Below, one piece after another: positions 21,484 to 51,211 of a DNA stretch of 64,000 bases; the stretch's first letter is position 1; each line of letters starts with the position of its first letter. Source of the DNA: Gammaproteobacteria bacterium (GTDB lineage: Bacteria > Pseudomonadota > Gammaproteobacteria > CBDBNL01 > JAAOII01); the NCBI GenBank assembly GCA_965209035.1, contig OZ242372.1:160001-224000 (forward strand). Direction: 5' to 3'. Position numbers and translations under genes: made by a program. The notes under the pieces were generated by a model. That model did no database searches, had not been told where the DNA came from, and saw nothing but the letters and a program-made list of their open reading frames with translations.

Positions 21484-24400
21484 CTACCTGCCTTGCGCCG
21501 AAATGCCACCCGGCATGCAGTTCAAAGCCGGGTATTGGGAACTCTCGCCCAGATCCCAGACGCGGACAAAGCCGATCGGTTGGGAAGTACTTTCCGTTTC
21601 CTCGCCGGTGTTTGGATTGCACCAGAAGTTACCCCAGAGAGCATAGATCCCTGTGAAAGAAGCACCTTGTAGTTGAACCGTGCTTTGCCCATCACCGCCG
21701 GCACCGGTTGATTGCCCGGTGGTTTCAGTATCCCAATAGGAAGCATTGACAGTGATTTGCGCATCGGCAATGCCAATCAAGCCGCCGATATCACCACCGG
21801 AACCTAAAACAAACCCGGCGGCAACATAAGAATAATAAATTTGACTGTCTTGCCCGCCTCCAATACCAACCAGCCCACCAACTTCATCATCGCCGGCAAC
21901 ACTTCCGCCGAGCACATAAGCATAGCGAATGTCAGACCTATATCCATCCCCAACCAGTCCGCCAACCTCATCACCGCCGGCAACACTTCCGCCGAACACA
22001 TAAGCATAGCGAATATCAACCTCTCGCCCCTTCCCAACCAGCCCACCAACTTCATCATCGCCGGCAACACTTCCGCCGAGCACATAAGAATAGCGAATAT
22101 CAGCACCCTCGCCATCCCCAACCAGTCCGCCAACGGTAACATTGCCGGAAACATCTCCGCCGGACACATACGCATAGTGAATATCAGCACCCTCGCCATC
22201 CCCAACCAGTCCGCCAACAGCAACATCACCGGATACATTTACGCCGGATACATTGGCATAGATAATACTGGCATTCGCACCAGACCCAACCAGCCCGCCA
22301 ACTTCATCACCGCCGGCAACACTTCCGCCGAACACATAAGCATAGCGAATATCAGCATCCTCGCCATCCCCAACCAGCCCGCCGACATTGCCGGCAGACG
22401 GACTCATCACACTGCCACCGGTAACCGACAGATTCTCATAACCGGCATTCCTGCCATTGCCTACCAGTGTGCCCACATCATTGGCACCACCGCTGACACG
22501 CGCATTCCGGAGATGCAAATTTTGAAGACTACCATTGAACGCGCCAAATAATCCCACTCCGATCGCATCATGATGCGCAGAAACAAACAGATCGGCAATC
22601 GTGTGATCCCGGCCATCAAACACACCCGTATAAGCGGTGCAAACATTATTTGATGTACAGAAGCCAATCGGCACCCATCCGCTGCCATCACGATCCGTCC
22701 AAGTAGATTGCTTGCCGCTGTTCTCCCCATTAGACCCATAAGATGCCACCAGACTAAAATTCAACGAGCGGGTCAATTCGTAACCCAAACAGCCGGAACT
22801 CGGACAACCTGCAGAACCCACGGCGGTAATCTCGTCAGTACGGTTATCATCCGCCCCATCGCCATTCAGATCATCGCGCAGGCGCGCCAAGTCATCCAGA
22901 GTGCGGATTTCTATCAAGCCATTATTGTCATCGTCCGAGTCCGCCATCAAGTCTGTTTGACAACCGGCAACCACGCTATCCGGATTACCGTCTTGATCCG
23001 TATCGGTGCTCGCACAGGCATCCCGAGGAAACGCATCTGTCGTATCGGGGACATGATCATTGTCATCGTCCGTATCTTCGCCCGCATCCCGACAGCCGTC
23101 TTTGTCATTGTCCGTCGTCCGATTGGATCTCCAATCCGTTTCGCCGGGATCGCAGGCATCCTCTCCGTTGAGCACACGATCGCCATCATCGTCCGGCAAC
23201 CCATCCAAAACACCCGCCATTCCCGTATCGCCTTCATAGAATAAGTTGACACCCGTTGCCTCATTGGCACTCAATACCGTCGCCTCGTCGCGATCTTGAA
23301 TTTGAATATCCACCCAGGCAAGATAATTGCATTGCTCAAACTCCGGTCTTGTCCCTAAAATACCTCCGCTACATGCACCCGAAACAGGCGGATTCGTCCG
23401 GGCAACTTGACCAAAAAAAAGACTCTTGCGATCATACCGCTCCGGCACATCGCCCAAAATACCGGTTGTCACATCCGTATAGTCATCCGACAAGCCGGTC
23501 AGAGATACCCGGACGCTACAGTAATAACGACTCCTTGCCTCAAAATCTACTTCCTCCTCGGAACCCAACAAAATTCGATAGCCCTGATTATCCAAATAAA
23601 ATCGGCGGGAACAGTAAGCACTATTATCCGTTCTGTTGAATCCGGACTGCAAACGAAAGTAAAGAGTCGGCGGCCTGTCCAAACCCGCCTGTGCCCGCAT
23701 GGCTGCCGAAAGATCTGTTTGGATACCCAAGGTACGAAGAACATTGCCGGCGCCGGAAACCACAGAATACGGTGGCGCATTTTCATTCAACATACCTACG
23801 AGTTCATAATGATGACGCCGGCGTTCCACTATCCTTTCTTCCGTTTGCAACACCTCACGCTGATAGAAAAATGGAAACGCAAACCTTATCGACTCCAAAT
23901 CCGCGCCGAACCCGCTCTTTGCCGCAGGATCTAAATTGAAAATATCCTCCGGTGCCGAGGTCACATTCGGATGAGTCACCAAGAAATGCCGCAAGGATCC
24001 TTCCCGGGTATGAATGTCATCAAAAAGTTCCCGAGACATCCCCTTAGCCGCTCGATAGGTCAACGACAGATTGCGATGATTTACTCCGTTTTCTGTCAAC
24101 CGCAATAGGATCGAGATATTTAAGGCCTGATTTAGCCGAAAGATTCTGTTTTCGCCCATGCCCTCGCTGTCCCAAAAATCTGTCTGAAAAATAGCTTCTG
24201 TGGGATAAACAACTGAGCGAGCATTATCTCTAAACAGCGAATAAAGTAACGGATCTTTCTTTGATAGCGAAAAGAACGAAAACATTAGAGGAAACCCTAG
24301 TTCCACCCTTCCCTCAAAAGTGCGGTTATTCGTCTCAACAACCACTGTCACCCGTTCTGTCCCGGCCCTTGTAAACCCATTAAATATGACAAAATCCTCC

Positions 24401-24960: not shown

Positions 24961-25036
24961 CGGCAGCAACACTCGACTTGTCTTGTACCTACTCAAAAAT
25001 ATCCGATGGAATAAGATGCCGGGACGGCACAATGTC

Positions 25037-26668
25037 CTAAAAACGATATGCGAGAGCAAGGCGCAAGTTTGTGGCGGAGAAGGAGGTCCGGAACACTTCC
25101 GTATTCGCATCATCTTCTTGGTCAATCGCCTCATCGACCAGATCGGTATCATTGATATATTCAAGAACATCCAAAGATACCGCCGCCGTGAGCCCAAAGT
25201 CGCTTTGGTATTGGTAATACAAGGTTGTGCCCCGGGCAAAACCTACTCCTCCCAAAGCCCAGCCAACCCGATGCCGCAGTTGCTCGCCCATATTGCCCGC
25301 AATATGCAAAGCGGGAAAACACTCAAGGGCGAAGTTCATCGTATCACCGGTAGCTGCCGCATAGAGCGCATAGCCGCGATAGTTCTTTTCATCAAAATAA
25401 GAGGCCCCGCAAAGATAATTAAAATTAACGATCCGCTTATCCGAGTAATAATCAAAACCGACACTATAGATATCACCTATAATTTCCAAATAGGCTTTAC
25501 CGTCATTCTCATTGGCAACCCAGTTCAGATAGTCAATTGTTTGTGAATAAAACTGACTCGTCCCGGGGGAGAACTCTCTACCGCCCGATTCCCGATCCAA
25601 GACATTATAATCATCCAAAGAAAAGGTGCGCGCCCATTCAAACTTAACGGCATACCTCTTGATGGGAACCGAAAGTTCAAAACCGTATGCTGTGTTCGGA
25701 CTAAAAGTTGGCGACGGCCTGGCGACAGGCAACCGTTCATCCGTATTAATACTCCGAATACAGCCTTCAATCGTTGCTCTCACTGCTCCGCCGCGACACA
25801 CATAGTCGCCGTTGCGACGCAACAGTTCGAACTGCGCGATTGGAAATCTATAGCCCTCGTAATAGGTGAAACCGGCAGTCAGCCGGGAACCCACATATAA
25901 AACGCGCACCGCTTGTTGTGAAGGATCTTTCGGTGCGGCAAATTTTACCGTTTGATCTTCGTTGTGTTCGTTTGCATATTCCACATTGCCGGTAAACTCG
26001 CCCAACAATTGATCGACCAACAGTTGCGGAAAATAATAATAATGCACTTCCAGACCACCCGGTATAAAAAATTGGGCGGATGCCACATATTGCGGCAGGC
26101 GATTATCCACCTTACTGTAACTGAGTGTTGTGCTGCTAAAATCTATGGGCAGTACCAGATCTACGGGCGAAAAGAGATCAAACTGACCGAACACCACGCG
26201 TTTGCGGCCCAGAGAAAACAGGGCATAATTCGCATCCAAGTCCACATAGCCTTCCAGTAGTTCCACATTGTCCGCCGTCACTGTGCGACTAAATGTTTCT
26301 CCTTCATTAGTATTGATATTCTCGGATCGCAAACTGAACTTGACCGCGGAACGATAGGCACGACCTTCCAGGGCAACCTTCCCCCAACTCCAATCCTCGT
26401 CATAACGCAGCCTGGCTTGGGTACTCGCACGCGTGTTAACCTCATCAATGATACCGGCATAGGTCGCAACCAGAATGCCACTAAAATGCCGCTGCCAATA
26501 ATCCGCTGTGCCGGGGCTGTCTGTGCCGGTTGAAAGATCCGTGCCGTCCTCTTCTTCTATGATGACCGGAGCACTTTCAATCACGGTTGCATTCTCAGCG
26601 GCAAGAGCTAAAACAGAGAACAGACATAGTCCGCATAGTCCGCAAAAAATAAGACATTTTAGTTTCAC
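25037..26668 (-). CDS. Predicted outer-membrane beta-barrel protein, copy 1
   Basis: Signal peptide ending VLALA, amphipathic strands, LEGYVD..LGRKRVVFG..SPVD motif and C-terminal LALAYRF (BAM-type signal). GTG start chosen by homology with copy 2. Confidence 0.8.
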   Translation of the reverse strand: MKLKCLIFCGLCGLCLFSVLALAAENATVIESAPVIIEEEDGTDLSTGTDSPGTADYWQRHFSGILVATYAGIIDEVNTRASTQARLRYDEDWSWGKVALEGRAYRSAVKFSLRSENINTNEGETFSRTVTADNVELLEGYVDLDANYALFSLGRKRVVFGQFDLFSPVDLVLPIDFSSTTLSYSKVDNRLPQYVASAQFFIPGGLEVHYYYFPQLLVDQLLGEFTGNVEYANEHNEDQTVKFAAPKDPSQQAVRVLYVGSRLTAGFTYYEGYRFPIAQFELLRRNGDYVCRGGAVRATIEGCIRSINTDERLPVARPSPTFSPNTAYGFELSVPIKRYAVKFEWARTFSLDDYNVLDRESGGREFSPGTSQFYSQTIDYLNWVANENDGKAYLEIIGDIYSVGFDYYSDKRIVNFNYLCGASYFDEKNYRGYALYAAATGDTMNFALECFPALHIAGNMGEQLRHRVGWALGGVGFARGTTLYYQYQSDFGLTAAVSLDVLEYINDTDLVDEAIDQEDDANTEVFRTSFSATNLRLALAYRF

Positions 26669-26730
26669 GAACCGCCCGGACCCCGAAAGCATCTGATGGC
26701 AACTTTATGATGATTCGTTTTGAATTTCAT
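26665..26730 (-). other. 21-codon mini-ORF: 5' remnant of a gene-B-like gene whose TGA overlaps the barrel GTG
   Basis: GAGGTGATGAT-ATG then MKFKTNHHKVAIRCFRGPGGS*. RBS and first codons match 51211 (MKSKINNYKIAR). Confidence 0.65.
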
Positions 26731-26872
26731 ATCATCACCTCTTTTAAAAAATAAATTAAATTTATTCTATTGTAAAGGGAAAAGATCGATGTATAAAAAA
26801 TATGGTTCGCTCGCCTTCGGCAAGAACTCCTTAGTTTTTTAACATCTCTTGAAATTAACAAGAGGCATCGTC

Positions 26873-29800
26873 TCAGCGCGGTCTCAGCCACCTGCCGGCT
26901 GTGTCACGGCGACCATAAATCACATACACCCTGTTGCCACCGGGGCCCGGTGCACCCACCGCAAAATCCCGAACCCGATCACCGTTGAGATCACCCACAC
27001 CCGCAACCGCATACCCAAGACCCTGCGAGAACATACCGCCGCGCGTCGATACGACAAATCCTTGGGAGGCATTAAAGTGTTGCAGATCCAACAAACGCCG
27101 CGCGGTCACCGGATCCAACACGCCGTAGCCCACATCCCGTCGACCATAAATCACATACAAACGACCTTGCCCATCCGCATATTCGGAAGCACCCACCGCA
27201 AAATCGTTCGTGCCATCACCGTTAATATCGCCGAGATTCGCAACCGAAACGCCCAAACGGCTATTGGTCTCCTCCCCGCGCACAATAAAACCGGCTGCCG
27301 ACGCCAGGGTCGCCGGTGCCAACACCGACCGATGGATGCCGTTTCTTGCCGTCCGACGCCCATGACTGCGGTTGCCATAAATCACATACAACAGACCTTC
27401 GCGCACGCGCCTACTGTCACCCCCATCGTAACCGGCACGCGCAGCCGAAACGGCAAAATCCGCCGTGCCATCACCGTTAATGTCGCCAAGACCCGTGATG
27501 ACTTCCCCCGCATGATCACCGGCTTGTGTTGATTCTATGACGAACCCCGCGGACGCGGACAGAGTTTCTGTTCGCAGAATCCGCGTTGCTGTGCCCGCCG
27601 CCGGATTGTTCGCCAAAGAGCCATGAAGTGAGCCATGAAGTGAGCCATGAGATCCCCCTTCACGCCCGTAAATCACATACACCCGGGTTGTTCTGTTCGC
27701 AATTCCCCCCGCAGGCACATTGTGAACCGCACCGCTGCTGACGGCAAAGTCGTCCGTGCCATCGCCGTTGATATCACCCACACCCGCAACGAATGCCCCC
27801 AAGTGCTCTCCGACCACATTCCCATTTTCCACCGCAGTATCTCCGAAAAGAATAAACCCGTGCGACCGGTTGAAGTCCGCCGCATTAAGCCGTTCACGCC
27901 CGCCGGCCAACATTCCATAATGGCCATCCTTGCGCCCGTAAAAAACATACAATCGACCCGCATTGGAAGGCGGATCCGTCATATTCGCATTAAAGCCGGA
28001 CGGCGCGGAAATCGCAAAATCCGGCACACCATCACCGTTGATATCGCCAATGCCCGCCACAGCCGCCCCGAGCCCATCACCGCCGGCCGGCGAAACTCCG
28101 CCATGCATTGTAAATCCGTGCGATTGATTAAAGTCTTGTAAATTTAACGCACGACGGCCACGGGCACTGCCCCGACCACCGAAATCCCCCTCCCGACGCC
28201 CGTAAACCACATAGGCATCACCGGAGTTGCTTCCGTTTGTATCGGCATGCCGAACACCCATCACAAAATCACTGACATTGTCCCCATTAATGTCGCCGAC
28301 CCCGGCAAGCAACCGCCCGGATGCGTCGCCCAAGCGATCCGCCTTTTGACCGCCAAAAAAGACCACACCCGCAGCCGGCGCAAGACTCCCGCCGTTAATC
28401 ACCCGCACCCCCGTTTGCGGATCCGGCATCCCGTATGCATCGTCACCACGGCCGAACAAGACAGATACCTCGCCGCGTGCTTGGCCGGCAGCAAAACCCA
28501 GACCTTGATCGGCATTCGGTGCACCAAGCGCAAAGTCGTCCCGACCATCGCCATTGACATCACCCACGGCGGCGATGCTGCTTCCCAACCGGTCCTTGTC
28601 GGCGTCCCGGCGCCACATCGATGCGACAACCGCAGGATCCGGCTCAACAGCACTGCCGTTGATGATGAACCCTTCCGCCGGCAAAAAAGTTCCCGTGTCA
28701 ATGACAAATCGCCGCAGATCACAGGCATCGCCCACTCCGTCCGCATCATTGTCGTCTTGCCGCGCATTTGGAAAATACACACAATTGTCCGTCAGATCCG
28801 GCTCCCCATCGTTGTCGTCATCCTTGTCTTCGCCCGCATCCCGACAGCCATCACCGTCATTGTCCGTCGTCCGGTTGGATATCCAACCCGTTTCGCCGCG
28901 CGGACAAGCATCCAATGGAGTGTTCCCGTCGGTGGCAAGATCATTCACACCGTCATTGTCATCGTCCGGATCCTCGGCACCATCGTCCCGACAGCCCTCA
29001 CCGTCATTGTCCGTCGTCCGATTGGATCTCCAACCCGTTTCGCCGGGATCGCAGGCATCCTCTCCGTTGAGCACACGATCGCCATCATCGTCCGGCAACC
29101 CATCCAAAACACCCGCCATTCCCGTATCGCCTTCATAGAATAAGTTGACACCCGTCGCCTCATCAATCCGCGATACCGGCGGCTCGTTGCGATCTCTAAT
29201 ATAAATATCCACCCAGGCAAGATAATTGCATTGCTCAAACTCGGGTGCCCTCCCGGAAATTCTGTCGGTACATGTACGCGGAACAGACGGGATCGTCCGG
29301 GCAACTTGACCGGAGAAACGACTCGTGCGATCATATCGCTCCGGCGAATCACCCAAAATACCGGTTGTCACATCCGTATAGTCATCCGACAAGCCGGTCA
29401 GAGATACCTGGACGCTACAGTAATCACGACTCCTTGCCTCAAAATCTGCTTCCTCCTCGGAACCCAACAAAATCCGATAGCCCTGATTATCCAAATAAAA
29501 TCGGCGGGAACAGTAAGCACTATTATCCGTTCTGTCGAATCCGGACTGCAAACGAAAGTAAAGAGTCGGCAGCCTGTCCAAACCCGTCTGTGCCCGCATG
29601 GCTGCCGAAAGACCGGTTTGGATACCCAAAGTATTAAGAAGATGACCGATTCCGGAAACTACAGAACGCGGCGGAGAATTTTCATCCAACCTGCCAATGA
29701 GTTGGTAACGATGACGCCGACTTTCCACCGTTCTTTCCTCTTCTTGCCCCACCTCACGCTGATAGAAAAATGGAAACGCAAACCCTATCGCCTCCAAGTC

Positions 29801-30922
29801 CGCACCGAACCCACTCTTTGCCGAAGTATTCAAATTGAAAATATCCTCCGGTGCCGAAGTAACATCCGGATGGGTCGCCCAAAAATGCCGCAAGGACCCT
29901 TCCCGGGTATGCACATCATCCAGAAGTTCCTGATACATCCCCTTAGCCGCCGGATAGGTCAGCGACAGATTACGATGATTTTTCCCATCTTTTGTCAACA
30001 ACAACAGAACCGAGATATTTAATGCTTGATTCAGTCGAGAGGTTATGTTTTCGCCCATACCCTCGCTGTCCCAAAGATCCGGATAAGAAATTATCTCTGC
30101 AGGATCAACGACTGATCGGGCATTACTTATAAACAGTGTAGAAAATAACGGATGTTTATTTGATTGCAACAAGAACGTAAATGTTCGGTGAAGTCCTAGT
30201 TTCACTCTCCCTTCAAAAGAGCGATTATTCGCATCAATAAGAACTGTCACCCGCACTGTCCCAGGATCCGCATACCCTTGAAATATGACAAAATCCTCCG
30301 TTTCCAAAGCACGTGCTGCCGCGGAAATACGCACCGGTACAGATACGGAAGCCCAATGTCGCCGCTCACCGCCCGTGTTCAAATACGAAATATCCGCCGC
30401 TACCTCAAACTCGCGCACGCCGAGTACACGCACCACATGACCCAAACTGAAATCTTGTGCCCTATCGCTCTTAAACAATAACCTGCCGGAAGACGCATTC
30501 ACTTCAAAAAAGGCCGTCACCAATTCGTTATCCCCCGGCAGCAAGCGATAGGTTACTGTCACATTCCCGGCATCTTGCGGCAGGCGGGCACGCATCTCTT
30601 CGCTTTCCAGCCGGACCATGCCCATGGTTCTGTTTCGTGACGATGCCGCCGTTGTTGTCGTATTGACCAAAGCAAAATGATAGGCAGCATGCGAAAACAA
30701 ATTGCGTGCCGGTCCGCTACCGCCGGAAGAGTAAGAAGGCACACATGCCGAAAGCGAGAACAACGATGCAAAAAAAGTAAACAAAATTGCCAAGCGTCGC
30801 ACGAAGACGGCACTGCACCCGGATATGATGTATGCTCCGATGCTCGCCATCCGGTCCATCATCGTCGGCAACACTTGACCCGTCTTTCGCCCATTCAAAA
30901 ATATCAAAAATATATCTTGCAA
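26873..30922 (-). CDS. Giant surface lipoprotein A2: conserved N-region, TSP3-like repeats, integrin-alpha-like FG-GAP repeats
   Basis: Lipobox SLSA-C; seven GD[I/V/L]NGD..DF[A/V]..YV.[Y/F]G units consistent with a beta-propeller. Confidence 0.85.
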   Translation of the reverse strand: MQDIFLIFLNGRKTGQVLPTMMDRMASIGAYIISGCSAVFVRRLAILFTFFASLFSLSACVPSYSSGGSGPARNLFSHAAYHFALVNTTTTAASSRNRTMGMVRLESEEMRARLPQDAGNVTVTYRLLPGDNELVTAFFEVNASSGRLLFKSDRAQDFSLGHVVRVLGVREFEVAADISYLNTGGERRHWASVSVPVRISAAARALETEDFVIFQGYADPGTVRVTVLIDANNRSFEGRVKLGLHRTFTFLLQSNKHPLFSTLFISNARSVVDPAEIISYPDLWDSEGMGENITSRLNQALNISVLLLLTKDGKNHRNLSLTYPAAKGMYQELLDDVHTREGSLRHFWATHPDVTSAPEDIFNLNTSAKSGFGADLEAIGFAFPFFYQREVGQEEERTVESRRHRYQLIGRLDENSPPRSVVSGIGHLLNTLGIQTGLSAAMRAQTGLDRLPTLYFRLQSGFDRTDNSAYCSRRFYLDNQGYRILLGSEEEADFEARSRDYCSVQVSLTGLSDDYTDVTTGILGDSPERYDRTSRFSGQVARTIPSVPRTCTDRISGRAPEFEQCNYLAWVDIYIRDRNEPPVSRIDEATGVNLFYEGDTGMAGVLDGLPDDDGDRVLNGEDACDPGETGWRSNRTTDNDGEGCRDDGAEDPDDDNDGVNDLATDGNTPLDACPRGETGWISNRTTDNDGDGCRDAGEDKDDDNDGEPDLTDNCVYFPNARQDDNDADGVGDACDLRRFVIDTGTFLPAEGFIINGSAVEPDPAVVASMWRRDADKDRLGSSIAAVGDVNGDGRDDFALGAPNADQGLGFAAGQARGEVSVLFGRGDDAYGMPDPQTGVRVINGGSLAPAAGVVFFGGQKADRLGDASGRLLAGVGDINGDNVSDFVMGVRHADTNGSNSGDAYVVYGRREGDFGGRGSARGRRALNLQDFNQSHGFTMHGGVSPAGGDGLGAAVAGIGDINGDGVPDFAISAPSGFNANMTDPPSNAGRLYVFYGRKDGHYGMLAGGRERLNAADFNRSHGFILFGDTAVENGNVVGEHLGAFVAGVGDINGDGTDDFAVSSGAVHNVPAGGIANRTTRVYVIYGREGGSHGSLHGSLHGSLANNPAAGTATRILRTETLSASAGFVIESTQAGDHAGEVITGLGDINGDGTADFAVSAARAGYDGGDSRRVREGLLYVIYGNRSHGRRTARNGIHRSVLAPATLASAAGFIVRGEETNSRLGVSVANLGDINGDGTNDFAVGASEYADGQGRLYVIYGRRDVGYGVLDPVTARRLLDLQHFNASQGFVVSTRGGMFSQGLGYAVAGVGDLNGDRVRDFAVGAPGPGGNRVYVIYGRRDTAGRWLRPR

Positions 30923-30950
30923 GATTCAATATTGAGGCGGCGGCGATGTC

Positions 30951-32594: not shown

Positions 32595-32727
32595 GAACCG
32601 CCCGGATCGAGATTCGGCAGACCTATGAGGGTCGGCGTAAAAAATTTTTCATTAACAGACAAAAAGATCATCGGACGGATAAAGCATGACACGGGTCTCT
32701 TATTAGGTATTGGACGGCGGCGATGTC

Positions 32728-32891
32728 CTAAAAACGATATGCAAAAGAAAGACGCAGATTGGCGATGGATATGGAAGCCCGTTCCACGCGTCTGGTCGGA
32801 TCTTTTTGTTGCTCTTCCTCTTCCAAATCGGTGAAAACAAGGTAATCATTGAAATATTCAAGGACATCCAAAGAAACTGCCGTGGTTAACC
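32728..32891 (-). pseudogene. 3'-terminal fragment of a fourth, divergent beta-barrel allele
   Basis: LTTAVSLDVLEYFND...ANLRLSFAYRF aligns with the last ~53 aa of the barrels and keeps the taggacatcgccgccg flank; no 5' part. Confidence 0.8.
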
Positions 32892-33135
32892 TGCATAGTC
32901 TCATAAAGGTTCTGGACTCTGAGTTTGGCATTGTGCGTCATCAGATCAAGCAGCCGGAGGTTCTGTCGGACGGGTCGAAAATAGATCCGGCAACAGGTCT
33001 CCGGTATGTGGAGCTAGATGAATGAAACGGGCAAGAAAGACGGTGAGCTGTTTTGCTCTCACCGACGCAGACAGCGGCGGCTTGTTGTTGTCAAAACTTT
33101 GAAGTTGATGCTTTTGAATAAGAAAGGTGTTGCCA

Positions 33136-33512
33136 TGCAAGTACTAATTGCCGCGGAGCATTCTCCTCTCGATATGACAGCTCTTGGTCGGGAAACATTG
33201 GAGGAAAGTGGCATTAAAAAATATGTTGACGGCCGTTGGGAAGAATGGAGTCAGAAATTGCATGTACTCAACCTATCCAAAAAGCATACGAGGGACCTTT
33301 ACGAGATTTAAGAAGAAATTTTTTCTTTTGTGGAAGCAAACATTTCCGAGAAAGAAGATCTTGCGTCAATGATAGAATAAATCGGTTCCTTATCCAATCT
33401 GCGCTTTCTGGCGCGCCTGTATGCCCGCAACAAATTTTTTAAAGAAAACAATTGGATGATTAAAGAAATAGACAAATATAATCCATCAAAAAATAAACCC
33501 GCCAAGGAGTAA
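33136..33512 (+). pseudogene. Pseudogene of the C-terminal domain of the coiled-coil family at 1-1923
   Basis: SPLDMTALGRETLEESG..DLYEI*EEIFSFVEANIS..MIE*IGS..LARLYARNKFFKENNWMIKEIDKY aligns with SPLNMTDIGEAILESSG..LAGLYLRNQFFKENHWDINDIDKY. In-frame TAA at 33309 and 33378. Confidence 0.8.
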
Positions 33513-33526
33513 AGCATCCCGTTGCG

Positions 33527-33919: not shown

Positions 33920-33972
33920 TTATTCCTTTCCATTCCATCCCGTCCCGGCTGTCTTGCCTGTCCGCTCTACCT

Positions 33973-42012: not shown

Positions 42013-42040
42013 GATTCAATATTGGGGCGGCGGCGATGTC

Positions 42041-43684
42041 CTAAAAACGATATGCGATAACAAAACGCAGGTTTGAGAGGAAGAAGGTAGTCCGTTCCAC
42101 TTCCGTATTCGCATCATCTTCTTCGCTTATCGCCTCATCGGCAAGTTCCGTATCATTGATATATTCAAGGGCATCCAAAGATACCGACGCAGTTAACCCG
42201 AAGTTACTTCGGTATTGGTAATACAAACTTGTTCCCCGGGCAAAACCTACTCCTCCCAAAGCCCAGCCAACCCGATGCCGCAGTTGCTCGCCCACATTGC
42301 CCCCAATATGCAACGCGGGAGCACAGTCAAGGATGAAGTTATTGTTGTCTTCCTCAGTGGCTGCCGCATAGAGTTCATAGCCGCGATAATTCTTTTCATC
42401 AAAAAAAGAAACCCCACAAAAATAATTAAAATTAACAATCAGTTTGTCCGAGTAATAATCAAAACCGGCGCTATAGATATCTTGTATCCTTTCCAAATAT
42501 GCTTTACCGTCATTCTCATTGGCAACCCAGTTCAGATAGTCAATGGTTTGTGAATAAAATTGATTCACTCCGAATGAGAAAGGTCTCCCGGCATCTTCTC
42601 TCTCAAATACCTCAAAATCATTCAAGGAAAATGTCCGCAACCATTCAAATTTAAGGGAATATCTCTTGATCGGAACCGAAAGTTCAAACCCGTATGCTCT
42701 CACCGGGCTAAAAGTTGGCTCCGGTTCGGCGACAGGCAATCGTTCATCGGTATTAATACTCCGAAGACAACCCTCAATGGTTGCTCTCACCGCTCCGCCG
42801 CGACACACATAACCGCCGTCGCGACGCAACAGTTCAAACTGCGAGATAGGAAAACCATAGCCCTCGTAATAGGTGAGACCGGCGATCAGCCGGGAACCCA
42901 CATATAAAACACGCACTGCTTGTTGTGAAGAATCTTTCGGTGCGGAGAATCTTGCAGTTTGGTCTTCGTTGTGTTCGTTTGCATATTCCACATTGCCACT
43001 AAATTCACCCAACAATTGATCGACCAGCAGTTGCGGAAAATAATAATAATGAATTTCCAGACCGCCCGGTATAAAAAATTGAGCGGATGCAACATACTGC
43101 GGCAGGCGATTATCTACCTTGCTGTAACTGAGTGTTGTGCCGCTAAAGTCTATGGGCAGCACCAGATCTACGGGCGAAAAGAGATCAAACTGACCGAACA
43201 CCACCCGTTTGCGGCCCAGAGAAAACAGGGCATAATTCGCATCCAAGTCCACATAGCCTTCCAGTAGTTCCACATTGTCCGCTGTCACTGTGCGACTAAA
43301 TGTGTTTCTTTCACGAGTATTGAGATTCTCGGATTCCAAACTAAACTTGACCGCGGAACGATAGGCGCGGCCTTCCATGGCAACCTTACCCCAACTCCAA
43401 TCCTCGTCATAACGCAGCCTGGCTTGGGTACTCGCGCGTGTGTTATCCTCATTAAGGACACCGCTATAGGTCGCAAACAAAAGACCGCTAAAATGACGCT
43501 GCCAATAATCCGCTGTGCCGGGGCTGCCGGGACCGTCTGTATCCGTTGAAAGATCCGTGTCGTCCTCTTCTTCTATGATGACCGGAGGATTCTCAATAAC
43601 GGTTGCATTCTCAGCGGCAAGAGCTAAAACAGAGAACAGGCACAGTCCGCATAGTCCACAAAAGATGAGGCATTTTAGTTTCAC
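42041..43684 (-). CDS. Predicted outer-membrane beta-barrel protein, copy 3
   Basis: N-terminal ~200 codons match copy 2; ends FVIAYRF. The frame is open to 43732; GTG start chosen by homology. Confidence 0.82.
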   Translation of the reverse strand: MKLKCLIFCGLCGLCLFSVLALAAENATVIENPPVIIEEEDDTDLSTDTDGPGSPGTADYWQRHFSGLLFATYSGVLNEDNTRASTQARLRYDEDWSWGKVAMEGRAYRSAVKFSLESENLNTRERNTFSRTVTADNVELLEGYVDLDANYALFSLGRKRVVFGQFDLFSPVDLVLPIDFSGTTLSYSKVDNRLPQYVASAQFFIPGGLEIHYYYFPQLLVDQLLGEFSGNVEYANEHNEDQTARFSAPKDSSQQAVRVLYVGSRLIAGLTYYEGYGFPISQFELLRRDGGYVCRGGAVRATIEGCLRSINTDERLPVAEPEPTFSPVRAYGFELSVPIKRYSLKFEWLRTFSLNDFEVFEREDAGRPFSFGVNQFYSQTIDYLNWVANENDGKAYLERIQDIYSAGFDYYSDKLIVNFNYFCGVSFFDEKNYRGYELYAAATEEDNNNFILDCAPALHIGGNVGEQLRHRVGWALGGVGFARGTSLYYQYRSNFGLTASVSLDALEYINDTELADEAISEEDDANTEVERTTFFLSNLRFVIAYRF

Positions 43685-43735
43685 GAACCGCCCGGATCGA
43701 GATTCGGCAGACCTATGAGCACAGACTGCCACAGA

Positions 43736-46700
43736 TTACCGGGGAGGGGGAGAAGGATTACCGGAACGACCATCACTGCCCGCTGAACCGGTACTGCCGG
43801 TCCTTCCATCATTGTGCCCACAAGCCCCTTCGCCTTTTCTACCACCGCCACCGCCCGTACCACCATCACCGCCATAACCGCCAACACCTCTTGCAACTAT
43901 CCCGTATGCGGCAGAATCTGTGATGGAACCTCTGCGAGAACCGATACCATGGACGGCGACAAGCCCGTCCGCACTTCCGGCATTGCCACCGCTGCCACCG
44001 CTGCCACCATTACCGCCATTGCCGCCATTGCCGGCATTCCGACTACAATTAGCACTTCTTCCACTGTAACCATTACCTCCGTTGCCACCATCACCGCCAT
44101 TGCCACCGTTACCACTAGTCACAGTCCCAGTTGCCTTGGATTCCGCCATGATACGACCGGCATTAATAGCCACCAGGCCGCCGGCATCGCCTCCGTTTGT
44201 GCCGTCAGTACCGGCAGTGCCGGAGCTGCCACTTCTGCCATGCCTGTTACCGTGTTTTCTACCAGCACCGTTTGCCCCATTCCTTCCGGGTGTACCGGGT
44301 CTACCAACAACACCTCGCACTCTTCCGGTAGCATAGGACCTCTCTATGGTGCCACCACTATCATTGCAACCGACCAGACCGCCCGCGGAAGAACCATAAT
44401 ATGAACCCGGCATCACATCACTCGCGGAATAGGAATCGCTAATCGTTCCTCGGTTGACCGCCACTAGGCCGCCGTAGGTGCCGACACCGGTTGAACAAGG
44501 ATTACTGGCCGCATTGGCATAGACCCCCGCACCTTGTTTTGTATAAGAATTTTCAATCCGTCCCTCATTAAGTTTTGCCAATCCTTTACCACCGACGATA
44601 CCAAGGTCGGCAACTATTGCACTGCCTCCGATTGTATTAAACAACGGCACGGACAACCCGCTAATCTTTTTCCCGTTGCCATAAAACTTGCCTTGAAAAC
44701 GAGCAATACTTGAAAAGGCTGAACCGGTATATCTTAAATCCGCATTGAGGATATAAATTCCCGACATATCGTTGGCGACAGATCTCAGATCACGAGAATT
44801 ACGAATATGAATGCTATCCGAATCACACAGATCGCCATCCCCATCATCATCCGCATCCTCTTGACGAGGATTGCGAACAGCCGGACAATTATCCGTTACC
44901 CGCTTTGGTGCTGTGCAAGCATAATCTATGCAAAAAGCGTAGTAAGCATCAGCAATGTTATGTGTTACAGATTCGGATATCTCCCGAGTTGTAGCCAAAG
45001 GCGAAGAGCGTAAATTGTGTGTGGCTAACAGCCTATCAATGGCAGGATCAATACGACTATCCGCGGATTGATAAAGTGTAACAGATACACCCTCACAGAG
45101 AAGATCGCAAACAAGATCCACACTTATTTCAAATACCTGATTTGTGTCCACTAAAGAATCTCTGCCATCCCAATTGGAAAAGACCGGACTTGGAAGGGGC
45201 GGATGCGGAACTTCTATGTTCCGTTGAGGTTCAAGCCCACCCGGTGCACAGTGCAAAGCGGGATATTGATCCCGGTTGCCCGGATTCCACAAACGCACGA
45301 AACCGGCGGCCGGCTGTGCCGAACTTTCTCTGCTCTCGTTTGTACTTGGATTGCACCAAAAATCAGCCCAGTTTGAATAAATGTTATCGGAAAAATCGGT
45401 CGGGGATCGGAGTTCCAGTGTGGTCCAACCCGAACCCTTATTACCGTAACTGCTCGCTTGACCGGTTGTCTCCCAGTTCCAATAGGAATCCGTAACGACA
45501 GTGTCGTCATTACCGCCACCAAGCAAACCGCCTACGGATGCATCACCGGATACGGTGCCTGTTGCCGCATACGAACGTTTCATGATAGCACCTCCGCCAT
45601 ATCCGACCAGACCACCAACCCTGGAATTTCCGGCGACATTGCCACCGACTGTATATGCATCCTTAATGGTGGCACTCCCGCCATACCCAATCAAACCGCC
45701 GACATCATTATCTCCGGAAACATTGCCGCCGGCCACATACGAACGGTCAATCTCAGATCTCCAGCCACTTCCAACCAAACCACCCACTCTGACATTTCCG
45801 GTGACATTGCCACCAACCATATGCGAATTATCAATCTCAAAATATGTGCCATATCCGAGCAAACCGCCGACTCTGAAATTTCCGGCGACTGCACTACCTT
45901 CCACATACGAATGGTAAACCTCAGAATTTCTGCCGGTTCCAACCAGCCCGCCTACTTCGTTGTTTCCAAAAACATTGCTACCGGCCACATACGAATATCT
46001 AAGGGTGGCTTCCCTGCCATCCCCAACCAGACCGCCAACATAGTTTATTCCCAAGACATCGCTGTCGAGTGCATACGAATGACTAATAGCAGCACCCAAG
46101 CCATATCCAACCAGACCGCCAACGATGAGATTCCCTGAGACCTCACCGCCAACCACATACGAATAATCAATCGCGGCATTAAGACCGGAACCAACCAGAC
46201 CACCGATGCTGCCCTCGCCGGAAACAGCACTATCTTTGGCAACTGTCCAAACCAAGGCGGCTGAATTAACATCTCCTCCCAGAGCACCGACAGAATCAGC
46301 CACCCGGCTCCTCACTGTCCCCGAAACCAAAATATTCTCAAAACGCGCATGGTGACCATTGCCCGCCAGCAAGCCCACATCATATGCACCGCCACTGACA
46401 TTCGCTGACAACAGACGCAGATTGCGCACCTCACCGCTCAACGCAGAAAATAAACCAACACCATAGACGCTGTCATCCACTGCAATCAACAGATTGGAAA
46501 TGGTGTGATCATTTCCCTCAAACACTCCGGTCCAGGCATTGCATATATCATTTGCACTACAAGAACCAATCGGCCCCCAACCGCTATCACTTGTCCAAAT
46601 ACTCCTGTTACCACTATCCGGTTCATAAGAAGCGGCATCGCTAAAATTGAGCGAACGCATTAACTCATAGCCAATACAACCCCCGACAGGACAGCCTCTG

Positions 46701-49700
46701 TTACTCACTACCGTAATATCACCCATATTACCGTCATCCAGACCATCGCCATTCAGATCATCGCGCAGCAGAGCCAGGGCATCCAGCGTGTGAATCTCTA
46801 TCAAACCATTGTTATCATCGTCCGCATCCGCAGCATCTTCAACGCCGTCATTGTCGTCGTCCATGTCCTCATCGCTGTCATCGCGGCAGCCATCACCATC
46901 ATTGTCTGTCGTCGGACCCGAACGCCAACCTAATTCCCCGATAAGACAATTATCGGAAAGATCCGCGACCCCGTCATTGTCATCATCCAAATCCTCATCA
47001 CGATCCCGACAGCCGTCACCGTCACGATCCGTCGTTGGACCCGAATGCCAATCGGTTACACCGCGCGGACATGCATCCAACCGGGTCGTCCCGCCAGCCT
47101 CAAAATCAGCCACACCATCATTGTCATCGTCCGTGTCCTCATCGCTGTCACGGCAACCGTCACCATCATGATCCGTCGCCGGACCCGAATGCCAATCGGT
47201 TACTCCGCGCGGACATGCATCCGCAAAGTCAGCCACTCCGTCATTGTCATCGTCCAAATCCTCATCACGATCCCGACAACCGTCACCGTCACGGTCCGTC
47301 GTCGGACCCGAACGCCAATCGGTTACTCCGCGCGGACATGCATCCGCAAAGTCAGCCACTCCGTCATTGTCATCGTCCAAATCCTCATCACGATCCCGAC
47401 AACCGTCACCGTCACGATCCGTCGTTGAATTCGAGTGCCAACCGGTTACTCCGCGCGGACAGGCATCCAACCGGGTTGTCCCATCCGTATCAAAGTAATC
47501 CACTCCGTCATTGTCATCCTCGGTCATACAGGTGAGTTGCGGATAGTCACCGGAACCGCCCAGATCCCAGGCACGAACGAACCCGGCAGCCGGCTGTGCC
47601 GAACTTTCTATCACCTCACCACTGCCGGGCCTGCACCAAAAATTAGCCCAATTTGAATAAATGTTATCGGAAAAATCGGTCGGAGACTGCAGTTCCTGTG
47701 TGGTCCGACCCGAACCCGGGGCACGAAAACTGTTCGCTTGACCGGTTGTTTCCCGGTTCCAATAGGAATCCGTAACGACAGTGTCGTCATTACCGAAACC
47801 GAGTAAGCCACCTACGCTTATGTCGTCCGAGTCTCCGGATATGAATACGGGACCACCGGACGCATATGAATAACTAATCCGAGATCCTTGATTATTTCCA
47901 ACCAGACCGCCAACAATCCTATTTGCGGATATGGCACCACCGAACGCATACGCATGGCTAATCACGGAAAAACTGCCTTCTCCTACCAAACCACCGACAA
48001 CACCGGTTCCTTTACCTGATACGGAACCAACGGATACATATGAAAAGTTAATCTGTGCAAGCGGACTGTATCCGACCAAGCCACCAACATAACCCCTTCC
48101 GGATACGGTGCCACCGGACGCATACGAATATTTAATCACCGCATTTTGAGCCGAGCCAACCAGACCGCCGACATTCAACTTTCCGACTACCTCACTGTTT
48201 TCGACAACTATCCGAACCAAAGTAGCGGATGTGGCATCGCCCGCCAACAAGCCCACATTATTTGCACCACCTGTGACATAGGCAGACAGCAGACGCAGGT
48301 TACGCACTGTGCCTCTCAGCGCAGCAAACAGACCAACATCACCGATGCCATCCTCCGCTGAAATGAACAGATTGGAAATAGTATGAGCATTGCCTTCAAA
48401 AACTCCAGTCCAAGAACCAATCGGCTGCCAACCGTTACCACTTGTCCAAATACGCAGATTAGCACTGCCAGGCTCATAAGAATTCGCATCGCTAAAATTG
48501 AGCGAACGCATTAACTCATAGCCAATACAACCCCCGGCCGGGCAACCACTGTTACCCGATGCTGTAATATCATCAATATTGCCGTCATCTATGCCATCGC
48601 CGTTCAAATCATCGCGTAGCAGAGCCAGTGCATCCAATGTGCGGACTTCTATCAGACCGTTATTATTACCGTCCACATCCGCCAGATCTTCAACGCCGTC
48701 ATTGTCATCGTCCGGATCCTCGTCACTATCCCGACAACCATCACCGTCATGATCCGTCGTTGAATCCGAATGCCAACCGGTTACCCCGCGCGGACAAGCA
48801 TCCGCAAAGTCAGCCACATTGTCATTGTCATCGTCATCATCACAGGCATCGCCAAACTTATCCTCGTCATTGTTAGCCTGATCCCGATTGGCAACTGTCT
48901 GACAGTTGTCCTTCGGTGTCGTCCCGTCCGCCTCAAAATCATCCACACCATCATTGTCATCATCCAAATCCTCGTCACGATCGCGGCAGCCATCACCGTC
49001 ATTGTCCGTTGTCGCATCCGAACGCCAGCCGGTTACCCCAAGCGGGCAATCATCCAGGCGAGTGATCCCGTCCGCGGCAAAGTAGTCCACGCCGTCATTG
49101 TCATCCGCGATCGTACAAGTGAGTCTTGGATATTCATTAGAGCGACCCAGATCCCACACACGCATGAAACCCTCTGCCGGCTGTGTCCGATTTTGCCGCA
49201 CATCAGCACTGCCGGGTTTACACCAAAAATCAGCCCAGCCCGAATAGACATCATGGATGTTCCCGGAAAAATTGGTCGGAGATTGGAGTTCATGCGTGGT
49301 CCGGCCCAAGCCAAGACCCTCGGCACTGTGCTCCTGCCCGGTACTTTCCTTGTCCCAGTAGGAGGCGATAACGACAGTTGCATTATTACTGTAACCGAGC
49401 AATCCGCCTGTAAGGAAAACACCGGATACAACTCCTCCGCCCACATAAGTATACTCAATCTCAGCACCCATAGTATGCCCCACCAGACCGCCAACACGAC
49501 CGCCTCTTCCGCCCATGGCCACACCACCGAACACATAAGCATGCCGAATCCTCGCATTCGTACCTTCTCCAACCAGACCACCGACAATGTGACTGCGCCC
49601 CGAAGCAGTGACATCGGACGCATAAGAATAACTAATCCGGCTGTTCTTACCATCGCCAACCAGACCACCGACAATGTGACTGCGCCCCGAAGCAGTGACA

Positions 49701-51211
49701 TCGGACGCATAAGAATAACTAATCCGGCTGTTCTTACCATCGCCAACCAGACCGCCAATATGATCCCCACCCGAAATAGTACTACCGGATGCATGCGAAT
49801 GGCTAATATTGGTATTCAGACCATCGCCAACCAAACCACCGACATGAGAATTCCCGGAGACAGCGACATTCTCCGCAACGATCCGAACCAACATAGCAAA
49901 CGACACATCACCGCCAAGAGCTCCAACCGCAGTGGCTCTCGGGCCACCATTCACTGTCCCCGATACCGTAATATTTTCAAAAATCGCATTGCGGCCATAA
50001 CCGACCAGAAGCCCCAGATCACTGCGACCACCACTGACTCTCGCGGACAACAGATCCAGATTACGCACTGTGCCGGTCATCGCAGCAAACAAACCAACAC
50101 CGTTGATCCGATCATCCGCCAAAATGAACAAATCGGAAATGCTGTGATGATTGCCTTCAAAGGTCCCATTCCAGGCTTGGCAATCCCCCCTAGCACCGCA
50201 AGAACCAATCGACTGCCAACCGCTGCCATCGGTCCAAGCATCCCTATTCGCACTGCCATTGGCATAAGAATGGACATCGCTAAAATTGAGCGAACGCATT
50301 AACTCATAGCCGATGCAACCTCTGTCCGGACAGCCATCGGCACCGGGTGCGCTAATCTGATGAATATTGCCGTCGTCTGTGCCGTCGCCATTTAAATCAT
50401 CGCGCAGCCATGCCAACTCGTCCGGCGTCCGGATTTCTATCAAACCATCACCGTCATCATCCACATCCGCTGCATCGTCAAAACTGTCGTTGTCGTCGTT
50501 ATCATCCTCTGTCAGCTCCGTATCACAACCCGGCACCAGACTATCCGGCTCTTTATCCCCATCGCTGTCTGTGCTCGCACAAGCATCCGTCCCAAACGCA
50601 TCCTCCGCATCCGGCACACCGTCATTGTCATCGTCCGCATCCAGACTATCCGGCTCCGCATCACCGTCCGCATTCGGACCCGCAGTACTCCTTAAACTCT
50701 CGGACGCCGACGCACTGCCGTCCGCATAGAGGATCATCAAACGCACGGTATAGCCGCCATCGTTTGCCAAGCCCGTAATTTGGTAGTGCATTGCCGCCAA
50801 AGGAGACACAATGACACCCGCTTCACCCGCCATGAGTATCACCGTTCCGGTATCGGCCAAATCTGCCACATCTGCCACATTGTCCCAAGCAATATGGAAC
50901 CCGGTAATGTCCGTGCGATTCGGATTGATCCAACTCAGTTCTAAGACCGTATCGGCCGGCACACTCTTGAAATTGGAAGCAGCCGGGGCCGAAGCGGTAT
51001 GCACTTGTTCATTTACATTAAAGCCATCAGGACCATTCCATCCTTTAGAGCTGTTGCCGTTGCCGCCGCCACATGCGGCTAAAAACAAAGCCAAGAAGCC
51101 GCTCATCCATAAAACGGGGAAAAAAGATTTCAAGTAAAAACTCCGGCAAGGAGTAAGATATTTGCCGGCGAACATGCGGGCAATTTTATAATTATTAATT
51201 TTAGATTTCAT
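43736..51211 (-). CDS. Giant surface lipoprotein B (2491 aa): FN3-like domain, three [TSP3-like + GLUG] modules, Gly-rich tail
   Basis: GAGGTG RBS; lipobox FLAA-C; N-terminus homologous to 8177..10345; three FWCxP..W[D/N][L/P]G..YPxLxC module ends; GNGGNGG tail. Confidence 0.87.
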   Translation of the reverse strand: MKSKINNYKIARMFAGKYLTPCRSFYLKSFFPVLWMSGFLALFLAACGGGNGNSSKGWNGPDGFNVNEQVHTASAPAASNFKSVPADTVLELSWINPNRTDITGFHIAWDNVADVADLADTGTVILMAGEAGVIVSPLAAMHYQITGLANDGGYTVRLMILYADGSASASESLRSTAGPNADGDAEPDSLDADDDNDGVPDAEDAFGTDACASTDSDGDKEPDSLVPGCDTELTEDDNDDNDSFDDAADVDDDGDGLIEIRTPDELAWLRDDLNGDGTDDGNIHQISAPGADGCPDRGCIGYELMRSLNFSDVHSYANGSANRDAWTDGSGWQSIGSCGARGDCQAWNGTFEGNHHSISDLFILADDRINGVGLFAAMTGTVRNLDLLSARVSGGRSDLGLLVGYGRNAIFENITVSGTVNGGPRATAVGALGGDVSFAMLVRIVAENVAVSGNSHVGGLVGDGLNTNISHSHASGSTISGGDHIGGLVGDGKNSRISYSYASDVTASGRSHIVGGLVGDGKNSRISYSYASDVTASGRSHIVGGLVGEGTNARIRHAYVFGGVAMGGRGGRVGGLVGHTMGAEIEYTYVGGGVVSGVFLTGGLLGYSNNATVVIASYWDKESTGQEHSAEGLGLGRTTHELQSPTNFSGNIHDVYSGWADFWCKPGSADVRQNRTQPAEGFMRVWDLGRSNEYPRLTCTIADDNDGVDYFAADGITRLDDCPLGVTGWRSDATTDNDGDGCRDRDEDLDDDNDGVDDFEADGTTPKDNCQTVANRDQANNDEDKFGDACDDDDDNDNVADFADACPRGVTGWHSDSTTDHDGDGCRDSDEDPDDDNDGVEDLADVDGNNNGLIEVRTLDALALLRDDLNGDGIDDGNIDDITASGNSGCPAGGCIGYELMRSLNFSDANSYEPGSANLRIWTSGNGWQPIGSWTGVFEGNAHTISNLFISAEDGIGDVGLFAALRGTVRNLRLLSAYVTGGANNVGLLAGDATSATLVRIVVENSEVVGKLNVGGLVGSAQNAVIKYSYASGGTVSGRGYVGGLVGYSPLAQINFSYVSVGSVSGKGTGVVGGLVGEGSFSVISHAYAFGGAISANRIVGGLVGNNQGSRISYSYASGGPVFISGDSDDISVGGLLGFGNDDTVVTDSYWNRETTGQANSFRAPGSGRTTQELQSPTDFSDNIYSNWANFWCRPGSGEVIESSAQPAAGFVRAWDLGGSGDYPQLTCMTEDDNDGVDYFDTDGTTRLDACPRGVTGWHSNSTTDRDGDGCRDRDEDLDDDNDGVADFADACPRGVTDWRSGPTTDRDGDGCRDRDEDLDDDNDGVADFADACPRGVTDWHSGPATDHDGDGCRDSDEDTDDDNDGVADFEAGGTTRLDACPRGVTDWHSGPTTDRDGDGCRDRDEDLDDDNDGVADLSDNCLIGELGWRSGPTTDNDGDGCRDDSDEDMDDDNDGVEDAADADDDNNGLIEIHTLDALALLRDDLNGDGLDDGNMGDITVVSNRGCPVGGCIGYELMRSLNFSDAASYEPDSGNRSIWTSDSGWGPIGSCSANDICNAWTGVFEGNDHTISNLLIAVDDSVYGVGLFSALSGEVRNLRLLSANVSGGAYDVGLLAGNGHHARFENILVSGTVRSRVADSVGALGGDVNSAALVWTVAKDSAVSGEGSIGGLVGSGLNAAIDYSYVVGGEVSGNLIVGGLVGYGLGAAISHSYALDSDVLGINYVGGLVGDGREATLRYSYVAGSNVFGNNEVGGLVGTGRNSEVYHSYVEGSAVAGNFRVGGLLGYGTYFEIDNSHMVGGNVTGNVRVGGLVGSGWRSEIDRSYVAGGNVSGDNDVGGLIGYGGSATIKDAYTVGGNVAGNSRVGGLVGYGGGAIMKRSYAATGTVSGDASVGGLLGGGNDDTVVTDSYWNWETTGQASSYGNKGSGWTTLELRSPTDFSDNIYSNWADFWCNPSTNESRESSAQPAAGFVRLWNPGNRDQYPALHCAPGGLEPQRNIEVPHPPLPSPVFSNWDGRDSLVDTNQVFEISVDLVCDLLCEGVSVTLYQSADSRIDPAIDRLLATHNLRSSPLATTREISESVTHNIADAYYAFCIDYACTAPKRVTDNCPAVRNPRQEDADDDGDGDLCDSDSIHIRNSRDLRSVANDMSGIYILNADLRYTGSAFSSIARFQGKFYGNGKKISGLSVPLFNTIGGSAIVADLGIVGGKGLAKLNEGRIENSYTKQGAGVYANAASNPCSTGVGTYGGLVAVNRGTISDSYSASDVMPGSYYGSSAGGLVGCNDSGGTIERSYATGRVRGVVGRPGTPGRNGANGAGRKHGNRHGRSGSSGTAGTDGTNGGDAGGLVAINAGRIMAESKATGTVTSGNGGNGGDGGNGGNGYSGRSANCSRNAGNGGNGGNGGSGGSGGNAGSADGLVAVHGIGSRRGSITDSAAYGIVARGVGGYGGDGGTGGGGGRKGEGACGHNDGRTGSTGSAGSDGRSGNPSPPPR
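46860..47520 (-). repeat. ~120-bp coding tandem repeats (TSP3-like DNDGVADFADACPRGVTDWxSGPTTDRDGDGCRDRDEDLDD)
   Basis: About five units visible at both nucleotide and protein level. Confidence 0.9.
49569..49753 (-). repeat. Perfect 87-bp tandem duplication of one GLUG repeat
   Basis: DGKNSRISYSYASDVTASGRSHIVGGLVG occurs twice; unit starts at 49569 and 49656. Confidence 0.92.

Follow-up and report, generated by a model that had tools for sequence, protein, structure and literature searches.

Positions 21484–51211 of the stretch analysed here (the window: 64,000 nucleotides of contig OZ242372.1, positions 160,001 to 224,000, from a gammaproteobacterial genome of 2.24 Mb that is 92.7% complete) carry three copies of a gene for a predicted outer-membrane beta-barrel, each directly upstream of a gene for a giant lipoprotein. 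The host bacterium is likely sponge-associated. The array, which is young and lineage-specific, arose by tandem duplication of one block to three copies. On sequence grounds, its barrels are recent paralogs of the barrel that forms the outer-membrane part of the only LolA-like/barrel/RND operon in the genome. We give about even weight to the reading that block duplication put barrels of this cassette before adhesin-like lipoprotein genes, and that the barrels keep their ancestral role as ports, acting in trans. An earlier note on this DNA had instead suggested a dedicated translocon or anchor for the lipoproteins, analogous to Slam.

Organization of the array

According to open reading frame (ORF) calls, the region is filled by seven large minus-strand genes, all co-oriented, which follow each other in the order of transcription as giant A, barrel1, cargo1, a gap of 1.4 kb, barrel2, cargo2, barrel3, and cargo3:

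43736..51211, minus strand: giant lipoprotein A, 2491 amino acids (aa), with lipobox LAAC, TSP3 repeats, three GLUG-type modules, and a Gly-rich tail
42041..43732, minus strand: barrel1, longest ORF 563 aa; 547 aa from the homologous GTG start at 43684
33973..42012, minus strand: cargo1, lipoprotein, longest ORF 2679 aa; likely Met start at 41940
30951..32594, minus strand: barrel2, 547 aa, the reference copy for searches and the fold model
26873..30922, minus strand: cargo2, lipoprotein, longest ORF 1349 aa; likely start at 30862
25037..26692, minus strand: barrel3, 551 aa from the ATG at 26692; homologous GTG at 26644
21484..24960, minus strand: cargo3, lipoprotein, 1158 aa from the homologous start; the longest ORF reaches 25239

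The anatomy given by the earlier note was confirmed. The three barrel genes are intact and encode proteins of about 547 aa, which consist of a signal-peptide-like segment (...LFSVLALA-AE, read by eye), an acidic IIEEE linker, the beta-barrel, and a C-terminal ..AYRF (LAYRF or IAYRF). They are mutually 85–94% identical (barrel1 and barrel2, 94%; barrel3 and barrel2, 85%). Each lies just upstream of its co-oriented cargo gene, with 28 bp between the barrel stop codon and the longest cargo ORF, or 76–100 bp when the likely Met starts are used. The lipobox of the cargos is LS(F/L)SAC, with the Cys at residue 60 of the long ORF; the criterion [LVI][ASTVI][GAS]C fits ...LFS(L/F)SAC in cargos 1–3 and ...FLAAC in giant A, all assigned by inspection and pattern.

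Following the lipobox, the cargos share an N-terminal region (N-region; residues 61–610, about 550 aa) that is 74–80% identical among them, as had been noticed, and then diverge. In cargo1 it is followed by about 1600 aa with weak cadherin-like signals, TSP3 repeats, and a GLUG-type C-terminal module; in cargo2 by TSP3 repeats and six FG-GAP repeats (FG-GAP, 1.9e-29); and in cargo3 by TSP3 repeats and a GLUG-type C-terminal module. Over their last 1.3–1.5 kb, cargo1 and cargo3 agree at about 91% of nucleotides. Giant A (Pfam matches Glug, 1.2e-22, TSP_3, and Peptidase_M26_N) has an N-terminus unlike that of the cargos, ends about 50 bp before barrel1, and is homologous to a 1753-aa lipoprotein beside the genome's canonical LolA-like/barrel/RND operon. 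Pfam scans of barrels and cargos found no POTRA, two-partner secretion (TPS), autotransporter, RTX, plug, or tetratricopeptide repeat (TPR) domain, in agreement with the earlier note; unlike two-partner secretion systems and autotransporters, the array has no POTRA-bearing Omp85, TPS domain, or cargo autotransporter barrel.

Identity and fold of the barrels

The barrel matched no family in Pfam or NCBIfam, the latter being also blank for the LolA-like protein described below. The DUF1302 model PF06980 gave no match in barrels 1–3 at its cut-off of 23.2 bits, and none in the six-frame translated genome at E ≤ 10. A HMMER search with the barrel retrieved 183 representative clusters at E ≤ 1e-3, including 19 at E ≤ 1e-30, and 3 of 41 aligned relatives match PF06980 (best E 2.7e-9). 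In hhalign, the barrel profile aligned with ten bona fide DUF1302 proteins at a probability of 92.7% (E 4.2e-7, 192 columns). The N-terminal acidic IIEEE / YW..HFSG motif of canonical family members is kept in the window barrels.

The AlphaFold2 (AF2) model of barrel2 has a predicted local distance difference test (pLDDT) score of 86.3 and presents a single barrel, preceded only by the disordered acidic linker (residues 20–55) and one short helix. Its best fold matches are 18-strand barrels, first Wzi (2ynk, Z 19.5) and then MOMP, Occ, and AlgE; overall, the matches have Z scores of 17.8–19.5 and a root-mean-square deviation of 4.0–5.7 Å over 281–315 residues. Foldseek against the PDB returned generic porins only, with query-normalised TM-scores of 0.29–0.43, and a search of the barrel profile against sequences of solved structures gave nothing relevant. 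The window barrel is thus alike in fold to Wzi, OccD/OccK/OccAB, AlgE, and Campylobacter MOMP, at a sequence identity of 8–12%; likeness in fold does not by itself establish a common function. A 2026 paper (PMC13499233) gives Occ and AlgE as the fold neighbours of DUF1302, a family that it describes as having no solved structure, and the fold neighbours of barrel2 agree with these. The barrel appears to be a remote member of the DUF1302 superfamily, with the same barrel architecture, so that the porin- or DUF1302-like character read in it by the earlier note was well founded.

The parent cassette

Barrel4, 61% identical to the window barrels, sits between a LolA_like gene (PF17131, 2.8e-49; C1:504.0–504.9 kb) and a gene for a 789-aa MMPL/RND-like protein (C1:499.7–502.1 kb), and forms with them an operon at C1:499.7–504.9 kb. 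The genome has six barrel genes and one remnant, and a single copy each of this kind of LolA_like and MMPL/RND gene. A quick maximum-likelihood tree placed barrels 1–3 as sister to barrel4 with a support of 100, and this clade as sister to the canonical barrel of a genome of the same family (G001); two tandem orphan copies of the present genome and an orphan of G001 form an older clade.

The arrangement around barrel4 is the prevailing one in the family. Fifteen distinct loci in other genomes were compared, namely 12 species-representative loci, G012:C4, G222, and one metagenome contig; the redundant L033, L034, and L035 were excluded, and L075–L077 are the same contigs as L023, L021, and L031. 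The scan used a profile from a 9-row alignment; a metagenome scan gave four loci, one of them new and informative. LolA_like lies directly upstream of the barrel in 11 of the 15 loci and MMPL/RND downstream in 10 (once with one intervening gene), while a co-oriented giant lipoprotein gene follows the barrel in none (0/15). Pfam checks of the cassettes gave PF17131 at 2.8e-49 to 1.1e-45, and PF03176. The earlier note had named homologs beside RND/LolA-like loci, unlinked to large lipoproteins, as an outcome that would refute its proposal of a Slam-like dedicated translocon or anchor; this outcome was observed at the level of the family, and the proposal is not supported. The cassette is rare, clear barrel matches (E ≤ 1e-60) being listed for 7 of 400 Gammaproteobacteria, this genome included; the genes flanking canonical cassettes are housekeeping genes only and give no clue to the substrate.

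With its three parts, the genome's operon is a variant of the AmeABCD or DUF1302-DUF1329-RND cassettes for the transport of greasy molecules across the envelope. Like the DUF1302/DUF1329/HAE3-MMPL RND cassettes (AmeABCD, Sama_1588-1591, PP_0765/0766 with PP_2018/2019), it involves a remote DUF1302 homolog of 18-strand-type fold, and barrel4, as the closest paralog, and most relatives are likewise placed between LolA_like and MMPL/RND. On the other hand, the family has PF17131 LolA_like instead of DUF1329 and no COG4447/BNR gene. The window barrels differ further, since they fail PF06980, are flanked by neither a LolA-like nor an RND gene, and have giant lipoproteins downstream. AmeABCD of Castellaniella defragrans has been linked to monoterpene tolerance (PMC6394551); cofit DUF1302/DUF1329/BNR/RND clusters were proposed to export a cell-wall component (bioRxiv 10.1101/072470); PP_0765/PP_0766 of P. 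putida are required on Tween 20 (PMC10866462); and C28 alkane induces an MMPL and LolA-like protein together with an adjacent porin (PMC6304351). Predicted DUF1302-DUF1329 complexes were also reported (PMC13499233, PMC10866462). The literature thus connects relatives of the cassette with hydrophobic compounds rather than with lipoproteins. A full-text search, in which subscription journals were mostly uncovered, found no literature linking DUF1302-like barrels to lipoprotein display.

Duplication and gene conversion

DNA self-comparison resolved the array into three copies of one block, accompanied by a remnant and two repeats:

40182–43719, minus strand: copy 1 of the duplicated block of about 3.5 kb (85–91% nucleotide identity among copies)
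28953–32629, minus strand: copy 2 of the block
23057–26680, minus strand: copy 3 of the block
32708..32891, minus strand: 3′ remnant of one more barrel copy, some 50 codons long, with 49% aa and 72–73% nucleotide identity to the live copies
32892–33098, no strand assigned: repeat of about 207 bp resembling a miniature inverted-repeat transposable element (MITE), with more than 30 chromosomal copies at 90–95% identity (blastn of the gap against the genome)
33083–33918, no strand assigned: second repeat, 0.4–0.8 kb, with 5–7 genomic copies (same blastn search)

The block contains the barrel, the spacer, and the first 1.83 kb of the cargo gene, and extends from about 35 bp upstream of the barrel start codon to about cargo residue 610. 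Since the three copies are duplicates of one block, the linkage of barrel and lipoprotein has been seen once, not three times. Pairwise synonymous divergence (dS) between copies is 0.12–0.33 and mosaic along the block: barrel1 equals barrel2 over codons 1–180, and the N-regions of cargos 1–3 are nearly identical over codons 61–120. This mosaic points to ongoing gene conversion among the copies, and the similarity of the cargo1 and cargo3 ends indicates that the 3′ modules were re-assorted. Both repeats sit beside the decayed barrel remnant, in the gap between cargo1 and barrel2.

That the array is a mis-assembly of one locus, or that redundant duplicates are being lost, is very improbable: one barrel copy did decay beside MITE-like insertions and short-read contigs break at the repeats, but the copies differ in a mosaic pattern, all three barrels and cargos remain open with barrel dN/dS near 0.3 (see below), and copy-specific pieces occur with 0 differences and at single-copy depth in the contigs of three runs from one sample. 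The array is therefore not due to chance and probably not an assembly artefact, even though the contig match is not independent support, because the three runs share one sample that is probably the source; among the raw reads of a second sample only four could be placed.

Selection on barrels and N-regions

The ratio of non-synonymous to synonymous divergence (dN/dS) is 0.26–0.31 among barrels 1–3 and 0.21–0.24 between these and barrel4, the copy linked to LolA-like and RND genes. All three barrel and cargo frames are open. By a rough reckoning, which is not the output of a tool, frames of 1.6 kb would not stay open at a dS of 0.12–0.33 without selection, and these values indicate that barrels 1–3 are under purifying selection and hence functional. 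dN is locally raised in some barrel windows (codons 301–420). The N-regions evolve fast, with dN/dS of 0.50–0.53.

Giant lipoproteins and the N-region

The cargos belong to a large family. In this genome, GLUG-type, TSP3, or FG-GAP modules occur in 77 ORFs that are 600 aa or longer, examples being giant A and the ORF at 8177–10345 of the window (minus strand). A crude lipobox pattern fits 64 of the 77 (65 with cargo3 taken at its homologous start), and a Gly/Ser-rich linker usually comes next; only 5 of the 77 lie within 5 kb of a barrel gene. Module matches in related genomes number 289 in G001 and 88, 81, and 30 in three genomes of a sister genus, g3. In none of these three g3 genomes (completeness 93, 91, and 72%) did the barrel family profile find a match, and at three sampled g3 loci a clear lipobox is present in all seven ORFs of 999 aa or more. 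By these gene contents, a barrel in cis is unnecessary for this class of lipoproteins. Ordinary LolA and LolB are present in the genome. The nearness of barrels and giants at the barrel4 locus and in G001 was considered as evidence of coupling and dropped, because giants are so frequent (77 here, 289 matches in G001) that chance nearness is likely.

Giant repeat adhesins count among the 'eukaryote-like proteins' of sponge symbionts. The cargos likewise carry TSP3, FG-GAP, cadherin-like, fn3, and GLUG-type modules and come from a massively expanded family, but most members here are predicted lipoproteins (64/77 by the crude pattern) and not substrates of type I or type V secretion systems. The full-text search, with the same coverage, found no literature on GLUG-type giant lipoproteins of sponge symbionts.

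Searches of five related genomes (G001–G005) did not find the N-region. A word-indexed protein search, in which the 'longer' and 'shorter' length classes were left out, retrieved only the genome's own cargo3 (P0154, 1158 aa); the ESM Atlas gave no usable match, and Pfam at E ≤ 1 only a chance-level match to Tail_tube. Cadherin-like motifs were seen by eye, with no confirmation by a tool, and the AF2 model from a 3-row alignment has a mean pLDDT of 29.9, too low for use. Two distant paralogs occur in the genome (34–38% identity), both lacking residues corresponding to about 220–394. The first is a 2059-aa lipobox (LTAC) protein with no barrel nearby. The second is a truncated 415-aa copy at G000:C1:2090639-2092908, which abuts a 388-aa ORF of the opposite strand that looks transposase- or helix-turn-helix-like by eye; an accD-like gene present in two copies near this position suggests a recent rearrangement.

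Proposed origin and role of the barrels

We propose that a single block of about 3.5 kb, comprising a divergent DUF1302-superfamily barrel gene and the 5′ 1.83 kb of a giant adhesin gene, was duplicated to three copies, while a fourth barrel copy of the array decayed next to MITE-like insertions. The copies would have been partly homogenised by gene conversion, and the cargo 3′ ends re-assorted with TSP3, GLUG-type, FG-GAP, and cadherin-like modules from the giant-lipoprotein family of the genome. Barrels 1–3 would be outer-membrane ports that take a ligand, probably hydrophobic, from a LolA-fold periplasmic carrier, presumably working in trans with the single LolA-like/RND pair at C1:499.7–504.9 kb. 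Their linkage to lipoproteins would be historical: they may be co-transcribed with the adhesin genes because both were duplicated together, and they would not be a dedicated secretion machine for the adjoining adhesins. The conserved IIEEE / YW..HFSG motif fits a retained port role, and orphan barrels with no lipoprotein partner exist both in this genome (1.114–1.118 Mb) and in G001.

Several points weigh against this proposal. Neither canonical neighbour is left beside barrels 1–3: no match to the LolA-like or the RND protein was found by tblastn in the 64-kb window, and the genome has one copy of each, so that action in trans is an assumption. The branch to barrels 1–3 measures 0.40, compared with 0.22 to barrel4, which fits a change of function. 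Every recombination event kept barrel and N-region together, with a spacer of 28–88 bp, and no terminator-like site was called between them, although the promoter and terminator scans are weak and gave no informative signal. Three near-identical intact channels are less easily explained by dosage than by one barrel per cargo, and the purifying selection inferred for all three is the strongest point for a copy-specific role.

Alternative explanations

The points just listed belong to the alternative in which the barrels changed function after duplication, each now serving the giant lipoprotein co-transcribed with it; we consider this possible but lean against it. In one variant the barrel would pass the triacylated N-terminus from a LolA-fold carrier, together with the polypeptide, to the outer leaflet, in effect like Slam; in another it would hold the threaded N-terminal linker as an anchor. 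The tight co-oriented spacing in all three copies, the preservation of the barrel and N-region block while 3′ modules were swapped, the three intact barrels with dN/dS near 0.3, the accelerated stem of their clade, and the loss of the LolA-like and RND neighbours would all agree with such a role. In addition, the predicted DUF1302-DUF1329 complexes reported in two papers (PMC13499233, PMC10866462) suggest that the ancestral barrel docks a LolA-fold carrier of acyl-like ligands, which would be chemically near to the handling of a lipoprotein anchor. The genome also has no match to PF04575 (DUF560), the barrels included, although the control genomes have none either.

Against a dedicated partner stands the distribution of both genes. 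The linkage has a single origin and is restricted to this genome, and the N-region was found neither in G001–G005 nor by the word-indexed search; no barrel locus of the 15 in other genomes has a giant lipoprotein downstream. At least 59 lipobox giants in the genome have no nearby barrel, nor has the 2059-aa lipobox paralog of the N-region, and genus g3 has lipobox giants with no barrel homolog found. The N-region itself evolves fast.

In Slam/type XI systems, a DUF560 barrel is encoded next to a surface lipoprotein such as TbpB or fHbp. Here too a barrel gene stands beside a co-oriented lipoprotein gene, but Slam has an N-terminal periplasmic TPR domain and a 14-strand barrel, whereas the window barrel has no TPR domain and an 18-strand-type fold; its cargos are instead modular adhesins of 1150–2680 aa, and the pairing is confined to one genome. 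A derived, cargo-linked role keeps its standing because the window clade lost its neighbours and was kept by selection beside lipoproteins. That the cassette barrel has become a cargo-specific flippase or anchor for giant triacylated adhesins, and with it a newly born route of surface-lipoprotein display, nevertheless seems unlikely to us.

We regard it as quite improbable that barrels 1–3 are autonomous porin-like channels, through which hydrophobic or other solutes would diffuse with no LolA-like/RND pair or lipoprotein, and which were duplicated for dosage or antigenic variation. In favour of such channels, the closest folds are those of substrate channels (Occ, MOMP, ScrY, AlgE type), orphan copies are found in unrelated surroundings, among them a defence-island-like region, and dN is locally higher in some windows (codons 301–420). 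However, the conserved N-terminal acidic motif suggests a retained periplasmic contact, and no member of the family is shown to be a free porin.

Other barrel loci and neighbouring genes

The two tandem orphan barrels of this genome (G000:C1:1114258-1118321, plus strand) are 34–36% identical to the window copies. Large helicase/methylase-like and other defence-island-like ORFs adjoin them, and no LolA-like gene, RND gene, or lipoprotein gene was found near them. The orphan barrel of G001 (L022, C1, 10001–11599) is followed by a Sulfotransfer_2 gene and then by another ORF of the same size. A 1972-aa lipobox GLUG-type protein is encoded 3 kb upstream of this barrel, and an amino-acid permease gene on the opposite strand separates the two.

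In L020 (G012:C12, 9603–19058, minus strand), a gene for a 1077-aa subtilase (Peptidase_S8) precedes a tandem set of three very divergent DUF1302-like barrels (602, 704, and 581 aa), so that here too orphan barrels come after a large protein of exported type. In L026, from a metagenome-assembled genome (MAG) of the Arcobacteraceae, a second divergent barrel (13854–15392, plus strand) comes directly after the RND gene of a canonical LolA-like/barrel/RND operon; the sister MAG L025 does not have it.

Just downstream of cargo3, a 287-aa ORF (window 20086–20949, minus strand) encodes a Gly/Tyr-rich alternating sequence with the C-terminus ...LLFQHLF. No Pfam family matches it, and a small outer-membrane barrel is a possible identity. 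Upstream of this ORF, at 21132–21104, lies the best promoter-like site found in the region.

Significance

A remote DUF1302-type cassette barrel is a known kind of protein, and the cargos come from an adhesin family that has expanded. What appears to be new is a cassette barrel that is uncoupled from its partners, triplicated, and placed in an apparent operon with giant lipoproteins. To our knowledge, the surface route of large lipoproteins outside Neisseria, where Slam acts, is still largely open; a second barrel family for lipoprotein display would be important if true, and the evidence presented here does not support it. The array may rather be considered as a natural experiment, in which the outer-membrane part of a DUF1302-like/LolA-like/RND cassette was uncoupled from its partners and kept by selection. 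It also shows how a reduced symbiont genome diversifies its giant lipoprotein adhesins through block duplication, gene conversion, and module shuffling. The display of the at least 64 giant lipoproteins of this genome is probably a more interesting question than the three barrels.

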